Made by a program: the position numbers and the translations under genes. Shown here in pieces: positions 1-5,185 of a stretch of 29,757 bases of DNA. The number at the start of each line of letters is the position of its first letter. The first letter of the stretch is position 1. Location: positions 1-29,757 of the forward strand of contig JASEJL010000001.1 of the NCBI GenBank assembly GCA_030016465.1, read 5' to 3'. Under the pieces are notes generated by a model that was not told the DNA's origin, did not search any database, and saw only the letters and a list, made by a program, of their open reading frames with translations. Source of the stretch: Patescibacteria group bacterium. Lineage in GTDB: Bacteria; Patescibacteriota; Minisyncoccia; Minisyncoccales; DG-74-1.

Positions 1-2734
1 GAAAGCAAACCGTATACCAGGCCTCTTTTGATTTTTCTGTCCCAACTAAAACATAAGAAGGAGTACCCATCGAGCCAGGAATGAGCGCACATTGCCCAGT
101 TTCCCGATGTTTTGCCGGAATTTCGGGATGAGCTGGCGGGAAAGCCCGAGTTGCTCCTTTTCGATGAACTATCAATTTCATTTTTTCTCCGTTTACTTCA
201 TGCTCTTCGATTTTGGCAATATTATGAGCCACATCATATAAAAGCTTTAAATCGGCTTTTTCCCCTAGTATTCTCTTCCAAGCCTTTCTGACGTAATGCA
301 TAATCATATGCCGATTTGACCAAGCATAATTGCAGGCAGCCGACATTGCTTTGAAAAATCTTTGCCCTTCTGGAGAATTAAAGGGAACACAAGCTAGTTC
401 TTTATCTGGAAGTTTAATTCCATATTTTGGATAAGCTGGAATTACTATTCGCAAATAATCAGTGCAATTTTGATGACCAAGACCACGCGAGCCAGTATGG
501 ATAAACACTACAACCTGATTTTTAAATAATCCAAAAATTTTGGCAACCTTTTCATCAAAAATTTCTTCAACTTTATCAAGCTGACAGAAGTGGTTGCCTG
601 ATCCGAGAGTCCCAACTTGATCTCTTCCTCTATTTTTAGCTCTTTCTGAAACACAAGAAGCATCTGCCATTTCCATTCTTCCTCTATGTTCGCAATGTTC
701 GATATCTTCTTTTTCTCCATAGCCTTTTTCCACCAGATAGGGAACTCCACCTTCTAAAATTTTATTTATTTGCTCAATAGAAAGTTTAATTGTTCTTCCT
801 CGACCTAAACCAGAAGGAACTTCTTTTTGAATTTCGGTGGCTAAATTTTCTAAATATGGCTTAATATCCTTTTCTTGATAATCAGAAAGTAATAAGCGGC
901 AACCACAATTTGAAACTACAAAATTATTAGCAATAAAATTGTGTGCTGGATGATTTACTGTAAAATCATAAACAAAGCCTTGATAAGGAATTTTTTCTAT
1001 TTTTTCAATCTCATCCCAGACTAATCCTTGATTTCCGTAAGTATATTTCTGTTTATATTCTTTAAAAGAAGGGAAATTAAAAGCAATTCGAGGCTTTCCT
1101 AATTTTTTTTCTGGATGCCATCTAGATTTTCCAAAAAGGGAATGAGAAAGAAATTGAAATGGCGTATATTCGCTTTCATATTTTTTAAATAATCTTTTAG
1201 AAATTTCTCCTTTTTCATATTCCTCTCTTATTTTTTCTCTGACTTTAGTTCTGAAATTTACTATTTTTAATTTCCTTCTTAAATAATTAGCAGCTAAGCA
1301 AGCTTCTTTTTGTTTTTCTTGATTATATTCATAATTTATGACTTCACAGAATTTTATAAAATTCTTAGCCTCCTCACTTATTTGTAACCTAAATCCTACT
1401 GTTTCACCTTTCTTTCCTTTATGTTGATAGCCTGGTACTTCTTTGACTGAATGAGTTTTTATTCCAAATTCTTTTAAAAGTTCGGCAATATCTTTCAAAA
1501 CTAATTTTGCATTTTTTTCTAACCCCTTTACTTTTTGCATATTCAATTGAAGAGCATAGAAGTTATATTTATTTAAAGTTTTTGGCTTAGAAAGTTCTGC
1601 TCCAAAAAAGGAAGCTAAAAAAAGTCTTTTTTGCCATAAAGGACATTTAAAAATCCATTTAGGTATCCGATATGCCTTATGAGATTTTAACCCATAAGGA
1701 GTACCTAAAGCTATTAAAAGAGAAGCTAAACTATTAGAACCAGTTTTAATCCAATATTCAACTCTTGAAAATTTATAAGTTCCATAGAAAGTAGTAATTG
1801 AATGCTTTCTTTTTCGGCAATAAATTCGTGATGGTTTAAATCCTAATTTTAGGATATCTTCTTGAATTTCTTTTAAATCATCGGGGTGAGCATAAAAATG
1901 AATTTGAGTATTTTTGGCAAAACTCACTAATCCGTCGCCAAAAATATAGCCCATCAATTTTAGAATTGAGGAAAGTTCTGGAGAACTATAAGATAATGGC
2001 AGGAGACCCCTAGATTTTAATTGATTAAGAATTTGTGAAATTGCATGTCCTTGTTTATTATTTCTTCCTAATTTCCTCAGAACTCTTTTCAAATCATTTT
2101 CATTTAAAATTATCTTTTTAGGAGGCTGTTTATATTTCACACCCTTAAAAGGATACATTAAAATCATATCTTTCTCATTTAAAAATTTTACTTCCTTCAT
2201 TCCTTCTTTGGTTTGAATTGGGTGATCTCCAGTTGCTTTAATTTTTTCTCCGGAAGAAGTAACAATTTGATAGATGGTTGGGTTATTATATCTCTTGAAA
2301 AAGTTAAATGTTAAGGCATTTTCGAAACTATTTTTTTTAAATTCGAAAACTTTTACTTTACAATTTTTGAAATGTTCCAATTCCTGAATAGAAAGATAGC
2401 TTCCATTTTCAAGTAAAATTCTACTATCTGGGGAAGTGCAATTCTCGTCATACCCCACGAAACCGGGAGAAATGACTCCATCTGGTAACTTCATTGCTCC
2501 AACCCCGCCAATAGGTGGACCGTAGCCCGAGTGGATGTCAGGCATAGCAATAGCATATTTTACAATTCCCGGCATAGTAGTAGTATTGACCAATTGAATT
2601 AGAGCCTCATCTTCAGTTTCTTGAAGTAGTTTATCTGAAGCATAGATTCTTGCCGGTACTTTCATGTCTCCTCTAAAAGTCTTAGGAATTTCCCATAACC
2701 AGTCATTTATTTTGATAAAATCTTCCTTTCTCAT
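1..2734 (-). CDS. rtcB: RNA-splicing ligase RtcB precursor containing an intein; 3' end runs off the left edge
   Basis: Hand translation from ATG at 2734 is open to base 1. It contains the RtcB motifs AMPDIHSGYGPPIGG, VGYDEN|CG, GTLGSGNHF, HTGSRGLGH, YDVAHNIAK, VHRKGATRA and IPGSMGT. It is absent from the ORF track, probably because no stop lies in the window. Confidence 0.97.
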   Translation of the reverse strand, partial: MRKEDFIKINDWLWEIPKTFRGDMKVPARIYASDKLLQETEDEALIQLVNTTTMPGIVKYAIAMPDIHSGYGPPIGGVGAMKLPDGVISPGFVGYDENCTSPDSRILLENGSYLSIQELEHFKNCKVKVFEFKKNSFENALTFNFFKRYNNPTIYQIVTSSGEKIKATGDHPIQTKEGMKEVKFLNEKDMILMYPFKGVKYKQPPKKIILNENDLKRVLRKLGRNNKQGHAISQILNQLKSRGLLPLSYSSPELSSILKLMGYIFGDGLVSFAKNTQIHFYAHPDDLKEIQEDILKLGFKPSRIYCRKRKHSITTFYGTYKFSRVEYWIKTGSNSLASLLIALGTPYGLKSHKAYRIPKWIFKCPLWQKRLFLASFFGAELSKPKTLNKYNFYALQLNMQKVKGLEKNAKLVLKDIAELLKEFGIKTHSVKEVPGYQHKGKKGETVGFRLQISEEAKNFIKFCEVINYEYNQEKQKEACLAANYLRRKLKIVNFRTKVREKIREEYEKGEISKRLFKKYESEYTPFQFLSHSLFGKSRWHPEKKLGKPRIAFNFPSFKEYKQKYTYGNQGLVWDEIEKIEKIPYQGFVYDFTVNHPAHNFIANNFVVSNCGCRLLLSDYQEKDIKPYLENLATEIQKEVPSGLGRGRTIKLSIEQINKILEGGVPYLVEKGYGEKEDIEHCEHRGRMEMADASCVSERAKNRGRDQVGTLGSGNHFCQLDKVEEIFDEKVAKIFGLFKNQVVVFIHTGSRGLGHQNCTDYLRIVIPAYPKYGIKLPDKELACVPFNSPEGQRFFKAMSAACNYAWSNRHMIMHYVRKAWKRILGEKADLKLLYDVAHNIAKIEEHEVNGEKMKLIVHRKGATRAFPPAHPEIPAKHRETGQCALIPGSMGTPSYVLVGTEKSKEAWYTVCF
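908..2440 (-). mobile_element. 511-aa intein with a LAGLIDADG (DOD) endonuclease domain, inserted in RtcB at GYDEN|C
   Basis: In frame, 1533 nt. Begins CTSPDSRILL; block B TGDHP; block C LMGYIFGDG; block E FLASFFGAE; ends VYDFTVNHPAHNFIANNFVVSN followed by Cys+1 (CGCR). The N-extein is 98 aa, matching the known Pyrococcus horikoshii RtcB intein site before metal-ligand Cys98. Confidence 0.95.
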
Positions 2735-2737
2735 ATT

Positions 2738-3628
2738 TTAATTTCGATTTAAACAAGCCTTTAAATAAGAGGCTTTATGATTATTAAGACGCCAAAGTCT
2801 CATTTTAATGCTTTTTTCTGTTCGCTTAAGATAATTACAGCTTTCCTCGATAGAGTGATTTAAAATATATTGATCTTCGTAAGGCAACCAAAACTTTTGG
2901 AAAACTCTTTTCAGAGTTTTGGGTCTTTTCCATTTTAATGCTTGTTGTGCTTTTTTTAATTTTCTTTTTAATACCAGACAATTTGGATAGTACAAGTATC
3001 TAATAAATCGTTGAGCTTTTCCTTTATTAACCATTATATTGTAAATATTATCCCTTTTATTTCTACTCAATCTTTTCTTTTCTCCTGTAATCTTTTCAAT
3101 AACGTCGTAGAGATAATTTTTTAATGCTTCGCTTTTAACTGAAATACTAATAAACGGGAATCCTCTCTTACTTATCCCAACGCTTCCATCTCCATCTATT
3201 AAGCCCCTAATATAATCTTTTTCAGAAAAACTACATTTTGGTGGAAATATGTTTAAAAATTTTTTACCAGGAAAAAATCCTAATTTTAAAAGCTCATCTC
3301 TGAATTTTTTAGGAAACATTCTTAAACGGTTACTTTCATGATTCTTTTTAAAATTAGTGTTTCGAATTCTTGACTTAATTGGAGGACAAAAAGGAAATAA
3401 TTTCCTAAAAAACTCCAGTATTTCTTTATCTTTTTTATTAAGTTCGATTTCTAAATATCCTCTATTCCTCGAGTATTGTCTTAAAGTACCATCAGCCTGG
3501 ATAAAGCCAAAAAAATAAGAATGTTTCGGTAATTTAAGATTTAAATATTTCATAAAGTTTCTTTGAGTCTTTTTGGGAATTTCCCAGAGCCAATCTGAAA
3601 TTTTTTTAAAATCTTTTTTGGAAATCAT
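2738..3628 (-). CDS. Free-standing double-motif LAGLIDADG homing endonuclease with an RtcB-derived N-terminal peptide and a C-terminal Myb-like HTH
   Basis: Motifs YFFGFIQADG and YIRGLIDGDG; C-terminal WLPYEDQYI...LKRTEKSIKMRLWRL. The first ~19 aa match the RtcB N-terminus. The stop lies 3 nt before the rtcB ATG. Confidence 0.9.
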   Translation of the reverse strand: MISKKDFKKISDWLWEIPKKTQRNFMKYLNLKLPKHSYFFGFIQADGTLRQYSRNRGYLEIELNKKDKEILEFFRKLFPFCPPIKSRIRNTNFKKNHESNRLRMFPKKFRDELLKLGFFPGKKFLNIFPPKCSFSEKDYIRGLIDGDGSVGISKRGFPFISISVKSEALKNYLYDVIEKITGEKKRLSRNKRDNIYNIMVNKGKAQRFIRYLYYPNCLVLKRKLKKAQQALKWKRPKTLKRVFQKFWLPYEDQYILNHSIEESCNYLKRTEKSIKMRLWRLNNHKASYLKACLNRN

Positions 3629-3800
3629 GATATTTTTATTTTAACTTAAATTTAAAAAAAAGAAAAAAAGAAGGGTTATTTAAAAAATAGTCTAATTTTA
3701 ATTTTTAATATTGTAAAGAAAAAATTTAATTCTAAATAGAAACATAAAATTCACAATTTTTCCTCATCTTATTAACGGTTTGTGGATTTTTTTTCTTGGT

Positions 3801-3828
3801 TTTACATTCTCTTGACTTATTGTATAAT
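3801..3828 (+). promoter_or_regulatory. Sigma70-type promoter for dnaA, probably giving a leaderless mRNA
   Basis: TTTACA (3801-3806), 16-nt spacer, TATAAT (3823-3828), then ATG 7 nt later at 3836. Confidence 0.6.
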
Positions 3829-3835
3829 AAAAGTA

Positions 3836-5185
3836 ATGCTTAGCGAAGAATTGTGGCAGGCGGTTTTAGCCCAAATCCAATTGAATATTTCTCCGGCCAA
3901 TTTTGCTACTTGGTTTAAAAATACAGAAATTACCTCTCAAAAAGATGGCCGAGTTGTTATTTCTACTCCAAATTCTTTTGTTAAGGAATGGTTGGAAAAA
4001 AAATACAGTAAAAATATTTTTAGAATTTTGCATAGTTTGGATGAACAAATCAAAGAAGTAAGTTTTGAAATCAGAAAAACAGGATTGAAAGTTTCAAAAC
4101 AAACAGCAGTTTCTCTCCCCAGTGAAGGTCAACTAGAATTCCAAGAACTGGAAATTGACCGTCAAACAAACCTTAACCCGCGCTATACTTTTGAAAATTT
4201 CGTTGTTGGTTCTTTTAATGAACTAGCTCAGGCCGCCGCTTTTGCCACTGCCAAAAACCCTGGTCAGATTTATAATCCCCTTTTTATTTATGGTGGGGTG
4301 GGGCTTGGTAAAACTCATCTCTTACAGGCAGTTGGCAATAAAGTGATTAAAATTTTTCCTGAAAAAAAGATAAAATATCTTCCGGCTGAAAAATTTACTT
4401 CTGAGGTAGTGACAGCTATTAGAAATCGAGAGATTGAGAATTTTAAATTAAAATACCAGAAATTTGATGTTTTGATTTTAGATGACGTCCATTTTTTAGC
4501 CGGGAAAGAAAAAACTCAGGAAGAATTTTTCCACATTTTTAATGCTCTTTATGAAAAAAATAAACAAATTATTCTTTCTTCTGATAAGCCGCCAAAAGCC
4601 ATTCCGGCTCTGACCGAGAGATTAAGGTCGCGTTTTGAAGGAGGAATGATAGCCGATATCAGTTACCCGGATTATGAAACCAGAATCGCTATCTTGAAAA
4701 CTAAATGCCTTGAGAGAAAAACTGAATTTTCAGAAGAGGTTTTGGGATATATTGCGGCGAATATCCAAAAAAATATTAGGGAATTAGAAGGAGCTCTAAA
4801 CCGCTTAATTGCCTACCAAAGACTTAATAATCGGTCGCCTGATTTAGAAATCACTAAAACATTACTAACGAATTTAATCTCGACCCCCAGTAAAGTTGTT
4901 AGTATTAAAAAAATAATTCAGGCAGTAGTTGAGTTTTATGATTTAAAAGAAAAAGAGATTCTTTCTTCTTCAAGAAAAAAAGAGATAGTTAAACCAAGAC
5001 AAATTGCTATGTATTTATTAAGAGAAGAATTAAAAAGTTCTTTTCCTTTTATTGGTAGGCGGTTTGGCGGAAAAGATCATACCACCGCCATCCATGCCTA
5101 TAAAAAAATTATTAAGGAATTAGAAAAAAATAACCAATTAGAGGAGGAATTAAATTTGATTAAACAGAGGATTTTTAGTGGATAA
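3836..5185 (+). CDS. dnaA: Chromosomal replication initiator DnaA
   Basis: NPRYTFENFVVG, Walker A GGVGLGKTHLL, DDVHFLAGKEKTQEEFFH, domain IV GGKDHTTAIHA. Start placed at ATG 3836 (MLSEELWQAVL) rather than the GTG at 3782. Confidence 0.98.
   Translation: MLSEELWQAVLAQIQLNISPANFATWFKNTEITSQKDGRVVISTPNSFVKEWLEKKYSKNIFRILHSLDEQIKEVSFEIRKTGLKVSKQTAVSLPSEGQLEFQELEIDRQTNLNPRYTFENFVVGSFNELAQAAAFATAKNPGQIYNPLFIYGGVGLGKTHLLQAVGNKVIKIFPEKKIKYLPAEKFTSEVVTAIRNREIENFKLKYQKFDVLILDDVHFLAGKEKTQEEFFHIFNALYEKNKQIILSSDKPPKAIPALTERLRSRFEGGMIADISYPDYETRIAILKTKCLERKTEFSEEVLGYIAANIQKNIRELEGALNRLIAYQRLNNRSPDLEITKTLLTNLISTPSKVVSIKKIIQAVVEFYDLKEKEILSSSRKKEIVKPRQIAMYLLREELKSSFPFIGRRFGGKDHTTAIHAYKKIIKELEKNNQLEEELNLIKQRIFSG

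Follow-up and report, generated by a model that had tools for sequence, protein, structure and literature searches.

A LAGLIDADG homing endonuclease gene with two motifs lies between two copies of the 5′ end of the RNA ligase gene rtcB in the 29,757-nucleotide (nt) stretch of DNA analyzed here, which is positions 1 to 29,757 of contig JASEJL010000001.1 from a Patescibacteria group bacterium (assembly GCA_030016465.1) and is called the window below. The gene stands free, without an intron or an intein around it. The rtcB copy downstream of it opens a complete gene, and the upstream copy is a short remnant that resembles the native start of rtcB in relatives. We consider it probable that the endonuclease gene and the substitute rtcB codons 1 to ~35 joined to it constitute a mobile cassette. 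The same layout recurs in other bacteria of the candidate phyla radiation (CPR), the endonuclease gene is intact and under selection, and its history is discordant with that of the rtcB body that follows it.

Duplicated rtcB 5′ end in the window

The minus strand carries all features of interest, with dnaA and dnaN lying divergently upstream. In the order of transcription of rtcB, the features were as follows.

3629-3835, no strand assigned: AT-rich intergenic region, common with the divergent dnaA; presumed to provide the promoter for remnant, endonuclease gene and rtcB
3572-3628, minus strand: remnant of the original rtcB 5′ end, codons 1-19, MISKKDFKKISDWLWEIPK, in frame with the endonuclease open reading frame (ORF); recognized by its match to endonuclease-free alleles
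3554-3571, minus strand: six-codon linker KTQRNF, composed of decayed remnant and endonuclease leader (CAAAGAAACTTT ahead of the ATG); delimited by a comparison of 18 left junctions
2738-3553, minus strand: core endonuclease gene, Met26 to stop, 271 amino acids (aa); start shared by all close homologues
2735-2737, minus strand: spacer AAT, 3 nt, from the endonuclease stop TAA to the rtcB ATG; read from the sequence
2630-2734, minus strand: functional rtcB 5′ end, codons 1 to ~35, of the "short type" MRKEDFIKIND..; putative part of the cassette, delimited by ancestry-informative sites
2-2629, minus strand: rtcB body, which leaves the window at its end and continues on contig C17 of genome G000

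The host gene starts at 2734 and was identified by its Pfam matches (RtcB, 4e-125; Intein_splicing, 1e-19). The 296-aa product of the endonuclease ORF (2738-3628) starts like the N-terminus of RtcB: in a single BLASTP comparison, endonuclease aa 4-27 aligned with RtcB aa 3-25 at 17 of 24 identical positions (E = 7e-6), the "MK" in that alignment being the native endonuclease start, Met26. Clean homology was limited to the first 19 codons, the next six (KTQRNF) being decayed remnant plus the native leader. Between the remnant and the functional copy, 37 of 54 nt were identical, with many differences at synonymous sites, and an identical 11-mer, GGAATTTCCCA on the plus strand, occurred at 3576-3586 and 2685-2695. 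The right junction reads TAA-AAT-ATG, placing the endonuclease stop 3 nt before the rtcB ATG. A preliminary description of this DNA, made from the sequence alone, had reported the RtcB-like opening of the endonuclease ORF, the synonymous divergence, the 11-nt core and the 3-nt spacing, and all four were borne out.

The same description had taken the insert to be intron-less, in agreement with Rfam searches, which gave no intron match for 2400-3900 at E values up to 1 (cmscan) and only two tRNAs for the window at the gathering threshold. An intron or an intein-like element that is removed at the RNA or protein level, with the upstream peptide as the true first exon or extein, would accord with the in-frame position of the window ORF behind the old start, and some relatives of the endonuclease, in cyanobacteria and elsewhere, are indeed encoded within rtcB, where a ~1-kb insert that is possibly an intron separates GGG from NHF. 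Nevertheless, the endonuclease ORF ends in a stop codon and is followed by a complete rtcB with its own ATG, and the upstream fragment in relatives is out of frame or contains stops; we therefore regard such an element as extremely improbable. An intein identity of the ORF was rejected in its own right, since it ends in TAA and has no Hint or intein domain in Pfam, and the true rtcB inteins lie elsewhere. An intron-encoded endonuclease was likewise rejected, as no ribozyme matched in Rfam at E up to 1 and the downstream gene is complete.

The upstream copy resembles endonuclease-free alleles

The structure of such a duplication is by itself symmetrical, and sequence affinity is needed to tell which copy is the original. 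We surveyed 60 genomes of relatives (3 of the same family and 57 of the same order), 40 of which had rtcB; a close homologue of the endonuclease was not found in any of the 60. The endonuclease-free alleles of these relatives begin MISKKDFKKI(S/T)D(W/Y)LWEIPKSFR, the empty alleles starting MISKKDF..WEIPK that had been predicted from the window. Three of them (loci L035, L041 and L044) were identical to the window remnant MISKKDFKKISDWLWEIPK at 19 of 19 aa, and the remnant matched L041, from the same family, and L044 at 52 of 57 nt (91%). Mean identity to 25 endonuclease-free alleles was 0.79 for the remnant versus 0.68 for the functional copy (Wilcoxon p = 2e-4).

The functional copy belongs to a start type that is one codon shorter, M(I/K/R)(K/R)E(D/N)F.KIN, which was found in 35 of 35 distinct occupied loci and in 2 of the 25 endonuclease-free alleles of relatives. 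The long-type start is common to remnants and endonuclease-free alleles, counting those of the relatives and three further loci. These three are long-type genes near the occupied rtcB clade, and their fetched contexts showed no endonuclease gene upstream. Among the 120 RtcB proteins closest to that of the occupied locus L142, 57 were of the long type (479 aa) and 54 of the short type (478 aa). The two endonuclease-free alleles of the short type, L049 (genome G001) and L052 (genome G003), come from the same family as the window and are directly preceded by archease. Such alleles may have lost an endonuclease gene and kept its footprint, or they may represent the source lineage of the cassette 5′ end.

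Recurrence of the layout and decay of the remnants

The order of remnant, endonuclease gene and complete rtcB was found in more than 40 CPR loci from independent assemblies, and at every CPR locus examined the endonuclease gene lay directly 5′ of a complete rtcB. An assembly artefact is excluded by this recurrence in dozens of independent assemblies. Among 26 distinct junctions, 15 had an ATGA overlap of the endonuclease stop and the rtcB start; the others had gaps of 3-28 nt, except for one 32-nt overlap and L167 (165 nt). At L167 (2001-2830), a premature stop has cut the endonuclease to 219 aa, and the 165 nt that separate it from rtcB were once coding; decay of an endonuclease copy, as seen here, is expected of a homing cycle.

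Most loci had an rtcB 5′ fragment upstream of the endonuclease gene, ranging in length from 39 codons (L168) through 33-36 (L158, L135, L055 and L058) and ~25 (L167 and L138) down to 8 (L151), and in more than a dozen loci a remnant of ~20 codons abutted the endonuclease ATG. No remnant was present in L005, L057, L147, L152 and L195, where the endonuclease gene comes directly after the archease stop. The remnants of relatives were out of frame, truncated or, in several cases, interrupted by stops, frameshifts and indels, and as judged from these sequences the upstream fragments can be taken as decaying, displaced pseudo-fragments.

The comparison of left junctions from 18 loci revealed a conserved purine-rich leader of ~12 nt directly before the endonuclease ATG, which was abutted by remnants of very different lengths. 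Close homologues of the endonuclease are 260-280 aa long and begin MKY(I/L)NLK, corresponding to Met26 of the window ORF, and an RtcB-like N-terminal extension was not found in any homologue inspected. Only in the window does the remnant stay in frame and free of stops up to the endonuclease ATG; the left junction there consists of 19 native codons and then 18 nt, the last ~12 of which are the leader. The combination of an in-frame 19-codon remnant with the leader implies a secondary deletion of remnant codons ~20-35 in the window. Furthermore, the long remnants in relatives and the recombination breakpoints given below point to insertion near codon 33-39 rather than codon 19.

The preliminary description therefore needed revision in part. 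The predicted sharing of one architecture by occupied alleles was found in many metagenome loci, and the model of an intron-less insert in the 5′ part of rtcB, with the old start upstream and a substitute downstream, stood. The insertion point near codon 19 was abandoned for one at about codon 33-39. The idea that the endonuclease took over the rtcB start is limited to the window, with its in-frame reading, and did not extend to a general in-frame fusion, since all other members start at the position of Met26 behind their own leader.

The functional 5′ end and the rtcB body differ in ancestry

In the endonuclease tree, the window and L135 were sisters with support of 100/100. In the tree of the rtcB body (codon 41 to the end), by contrast, the window grouped with L136 and L138, and L135 was distant; the pairing of the window with L135, when forced on this tree, was rejected by the approximately unbiased (AU) test (p = 1.3e-4). 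Occupied and endonuclease-free alleles were interspersed on the rtcB body tree, requiring at least 6-7 changes. This conflict, together with the count of 0 of 60 relatives with a close homologue, provides the signs of mobility.

A change of ancestry was also seen within the window gene. At informative sites of codons 1-36, the window matched L135 at 12-18 sites versus 4-7 for its body relatives, whereas from codon 37 onward the ratio was reversed, with ~90-110 matches to L135 and 190-210 to the body relatives (Fisher p = 2e-6 to 0.016). The maximum chi-square breakpoint fell between codon columns 29 and 34, so that the window rtcB changes ancestry at about codon 30-36. The synonymous divergence (dS) of window codons 1-36 was 0.61 to L135 versus 1.3-1.5 to the body relatives. 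A second switch was found in L142 compared with the endonuclease-free L217: identity was 0.75 over codons 25-36 and 1.00 over codons 37-48, with five changes within the 12 nt left of the codon 36/37 boundary. Across 23 non-redundant loci, codons 1-36 were correlated with codons 37-100 at rho = 0.02, whereas codons 37-100 were correlated with the rest of the gene at rho = 0.58 (p = 3e-4). The remnants tracked the gene body (rho = 0.66-0.72) over the endonuclease gene (rho = 0.17-0.31). Taken together, the tree conflict, the breakpoints and the correlations indicate that the cassette would comprise rtcB codons 1 to ~35 along with the endonuclease gene, and that the remnant would be the displaced host start. 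The native origin of the remnant is well supported by these comparisons, which also argue clearly for import of the copy joined to the endonuclease in the window with L135 and in L142 versus L217; the short type, being specific to occupied alleles, points the same way.

These correlations bear on the opposite assignment, in which the upstream fragment and the endonuclease gene would have moved as one unit to a position just ahead of an untouched native rtcB start, and the fragment we call the remnant is old donor cargo. The structure is silent on which 5′ copy is original, and many loci share the same 20-codon junction, as this assignment would have it. However, the remnants track the host gene body and not the endonuclease, the window remnant has a 91% nucleotide match to the native starts of relatives, functional codons 1-36 are uncoupled from codons 37-100, and the short-type start is specific to occupied alleles. 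We thus think it very unlikely that the upstream fragment is the imported one.

Several observations nevertheless weigh against the cassette model. Across the family, the linkage of the endonuclease gene with the functional 5′ end was weak (Mantel rho = 0.22, p ~0.05), and a nearest-relative test on 19 loci gave a slight pooled excess (p = 0.02), with L140 as a clear counter-example that follows the body. When loci of equal body divergence were compared, the functional copy was foreign mostly in its first 8 codons, and the difference from endonuclease-free alleles was only 1-1.5 points for codons 9-36. Around the presumed cut site, the functional copy of the window closely resembles the endonuclease-free L219 of its own clade. 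A near-identical pair of empty and occupied alleles was not found, the best RtcB homologue of L142 being only 87% identical, and a look-up of sequencing runs for the locus returned none. The weak linkage, the behavior of L140 and the concentration of foreignness in the first 8 codons suggest recombination at a hot spot where tract lengths vary, and occupied alleles probably also exchange endonuclease genes. Furthermore, rtcB codons 37-100 occur in two sharply different types, KLLQETEDEALIQLVNTTTMPG.. and KMLEESFKDRSLEQLVNVATLPG.., which are partly uncoupled from the rest of the gene, and this suggests variable co-conversion tracts downstream of the cassette.

The same observations bring up an origin in situ, by which the rtcB 5′ end would have been duplicated at an inserted endonuclease gene in one or a few ancient events, and descent would then have been mainly vertical. 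The functional 5′ end would be native, with only its first codons changed by the need to overlap the endonuclease stop, and the endonuclease gene would be kept by domestication or expression linkage rather than by homing. Consistent with this, codons 9-36 of occupied alleles are barely more divergent than endonuclease-free alleles are among themselves, the ATGA overlap dictates the second codon (I, R or K) of the short type, the endonuclease is under strong purifying selection everywhere, and the Streptomyces homologues resemble stable neighbors of rtcB. Yet the endonuclease tree conflicts strongly with the rtcB body tree. Occupancy is patchy, with the gene in 0 of 40 rtcB-bearing relatives and at least 6-7 changes on the rtcB tree, and there are sharp ancestry switches, at codon ~30-36 of the window gene and at codon 36/37 when L142 is compared with L217. 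In addition, the one-codon deletion and the other shared short-type residues would need a repeated origin. Duplication in situ is thus a possible source of the arrangement, which leaves the tree conflict and the patchy occupancy without an account, and as an explanation of the loci we judge it unlikely.

The endonuclease is intact and under purifying selection

The 296-aa ORF matched LAGLIDADG_3 in Pfam (E = 6.5e-12), and a protein search returned 167 homologues, ~95 of which, at 55% identity or more, came mostly from CPR/Patescibacteria metagenomes. Motif 1, FFGFIQADG, lies at aa 39-47 (3488-3514), and motif 2, IRGLIDGDG, at aa 140-148 (3185-3211). Both motifs end in a conserved acidic residue, and D21, G22, D120, D122 and G123 were invariant in an alignment of 17 sequences (A2). 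An AlphaFold model with a predicted local distance difference test (pLDDT) score of 88.6 showed a monomeric double-domain LAGLIDADG fold, with the tandem alpha-beta-beta-alpha-beta-beta-alpha arrangement, plus a C-terminal helical domain. In a fold search, the top 30 PDB matches were all LAGLIDADG enzymes, maturases or WhiA. The best match was I-Tsp061I (PDB 2DCH; sequence E = 1e-7, Foldseek E = 3e-10), followed by the bI3 maturase, I-AniI, I-SceI and WhiA. Like the window enzyme, I-Tsp061I has two LAGLIDADG domains in one chain, but it is encoded by an archaeal rRNA intron. WhiA shares a C-terminal helical, DNA-binding-like domain with the enzyme predicted here; however, it is a domesticated transcription factor without catalytic residues, whereas the window enzyme keeps both acidic residues. 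Pairwise ratios of nonsynonymous to synonymous divergence (dN/dS) of the endonuclease were 0.09-0.21. Given these ratios, the invariant motifs and the LAGLIDADG fold, the gene codes for a protein that is under selection and probably active.

Proposed cycle, immunity and expression

We propose that the enzyme would cut an endonuclease-free rtcB near codon 33-39, and that repair off an occupied allele would copy the endonuclease gene together with the donor rtcB 5′ end, thereby keeping the gene whole, while the recipient's own 5′ end would be displaced upstream as a non-functional remnant. In the window, a later deletion of remnant codons ~20-35 would have happened to bring the old start in frame, and the enzyme may be made from Met1, from Met26 or from both.

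A functional copy that escapes cleavage is a putative further element of this cycle. Recoding of the left half-site is visible in some loci, such as L142 compared with L217; since the window copy resembles L219, immunity by recoding is not evident in the window. Codon 33 is Val in the remnants and Ala in the functional copies of all 5 paired loci. A general role of this change in immunity was rejected, since Ala33 also occurs in endonuclease-free alleles of the clade to which the window belongs.

As for expression, rtcB would be transcribed through the endonuclease gene, and its translation would probably be coupled to termination of the endonuclease, by ATGA at most loci and across TAA-AAT-ATG in the window. 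A terminator scan found no minus-strand terminator between the endonuclease gene and rtcB, and weak sigma-70-like matches on the minus strand were located at 3756-3729, 3717-3689 and 3656-3627, in a number not above the shuffle expectation; in DNA as AT-rich as this, promoter and terminator scans are uninformative.

Other features of the window rtcB

The window rtcB contains a first intein at 908-2440, and a second intein begins at bases 2-7. The latter (L215:1144-2691, minus strand) starts with CFPGD.. after ..WYTV, includes a LAGLIDADG block and ends with ..LVAN before CHGAGR. One rtcB gene therefore carries three selfish elements, the 5′ cassette and two inteins. The gene order in relatives is Mur ligase, archease, rtcB; archease (PF01951) was not found in genome G000, which is 94.7% complete, and rtcB there adjoins dnaA. 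In the body tree, the window rtcB groups with genes of other families and not with those of the same-family genomes G001 and G003. Both this grouping and the missing archease match suggest that a lateral tract may have replaced most of the window's rtcB.

A wider endonuclease family at rtcB

The tie to rtcB extended to distant homologues of the endonuclease (38-51% identical). In cyanobacteria, Shimazuella, Chloroflexia and Chthonomonadaceae (L060-L076), a homologue of 45-51% identity lies inside rtcB, in an intragenic insert of ~1 kb between the GSLGGG and NHF(I)E codons, e.g., L063:2256-3300 of Calothrix sp. NIES-2100. No Rfam intron matched at these GGG|NHF inserts, which may be uncatalogued introns or may split the gene. 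In a Blastocatellia locus (L071), the homologue lies 7 nt upstream of an E. coli-type rtcB, and no remnant was found upstream of it. About 55 Streptomyces/Kitasatospora genomes (L077-L134) have a homologue of 38-42% identity. At the one such locus examined (L098:2298-5050, Streptomyces sp. NBC_00005), the homologue converges on the rtcB 3′ end and is directly preceded by a match to the Rfam small RNA scr4677 (RF02673, E = 8e-12), and no duplicated rtcB 3′ end was found beside it; the Streptomyces homologue may be a domesticated relative. The family appears dedicated to rtcB across phyla, and it appears to lodge there in different modes: as a 5′ cassette (CPR and Blastocatellia), as an internal GGG|NHF insert (cyanobacteria and others) and as a convergent 3′ neighbor (Streptomyces). 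A LAGLIDADG_1-type ORF of 211 aa (L217:3986-4621) was located directly downstream of an rtcB without a 5′ endonuclease gene, an indication that endonucleases of more than one lineage target rtcB.

We also put forward, as a tentative and rather doubtful extension, that the cassette acts as an obligatory leader cistron of rtcB, persisting by expression linkage as well as homing, within a family that is rtcB-dedicated and has at least three lodging modes. With its 5′ end replaced and its start set on the endonuclease stop codon (ATGA), rtcB would then be expressed by the host only if the endonuclease gene is transcribed and probably also translated.

Comparison with known systems

To our knowledge, the described routes of homing endonucleases into essential coding genes run solely through self-splicing introns or inteins, the exception being fungal mitochondrial ORFs that replace the 3′ end of a gene. 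The rtcB loci would represent a third, mirror-image route, in bacterial chromosomes, by which the 5′ end is replaced and the element comes to lie between a gene and its expression signals. The preliminary description knew of no such 5′-end version in a bacterial chromosome, and a search of the open-access literature agreed, yielding nothing that links rtcB with a free-standing endonuclease and no bacterial 5′-end replacement. The loci bear on the spread and persistence of selfish elements in tiny CPR genomes, and they would provide a natural test case for translational coupling of a parasite gene to a host gene, as well as a new set of long-target LAGLIDADG enzymes with a predictable target, the rtcB 5′ region. 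They also hold traps for phylogenies, as the history of a gene's 5′ end can differ from that of the rest, and for annotation, as remnants may be called as small ORFs or fused to the endonuclease.

In Ophiostoma, Sethuraman et al. reportedly found in 2009 that LAGLIDADG genes are inserted in the rps3 coding region carried by rnl introns and that the displaced rps3 end is duplicated. There, as in the window, endonuclease and host coding sequence form an in-frame fusion, and duplication of the displaced segment keeps the host ORF intact; the Ophiostoma arrangement differs in being C-terminal, organellar and nested in a group I intron.

Free-standing homing endonucleases of phages, and their "intronless homing", have been reviewed (e.g., PMC2988022). 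The T4 Seg and Mob enzymes resemble the rtcB loci in that the endonuclease gene lies beside its target and not inside it, and flanks are co-converted, leaving a mosaic. The remnant-less loci with the order archease, endonuclease gene, rtcB have just this appearance. In contrast to the rtcB cassette, the Seg and Mob enzymes are of the GIY-YIG or HNH type and reside in phage genomes, and they are not known to leave a duplicated gene end behind.

The closest known parallel is the mobile ORFs (mORFs) of fungal mitochondria, which bring a substitute C-terminus for the gene they enter, as in atp6 of Allomyces macrogynus, atp6, atp9, cox2 and nad3 of Glomus sp., atp9 of Rhizopus and cox2 of Mortierella (PMC3630166). 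In both systems, an endonuclease ORF is placed straight in a coding gene without an intron or intein, and one gene end is duplicated, the displaced copy being native-like and decaying. The copy joined to the core of the gene is the imported one in mORFs and probably also at rtcB, and hybrid genes and horizontal spread would likewise be common to the two. However, mORFs replace the 3′ end, whereas at rtcB it is the 5′ end, so that the cassette lies between the gene and its promoter and start. The mORFs have a mitochondrial host, whereas the rtcB cassette is in a CPR/Patescibacteria chromosome, beside dnaA and dnaN, and unlike in mORFs the rtcB start usually overlaps the endonuclease stop (ATGA). 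The rtcB cassette thus works like an mORF and stands outside the mORF set, being N-terminal and bacterial.

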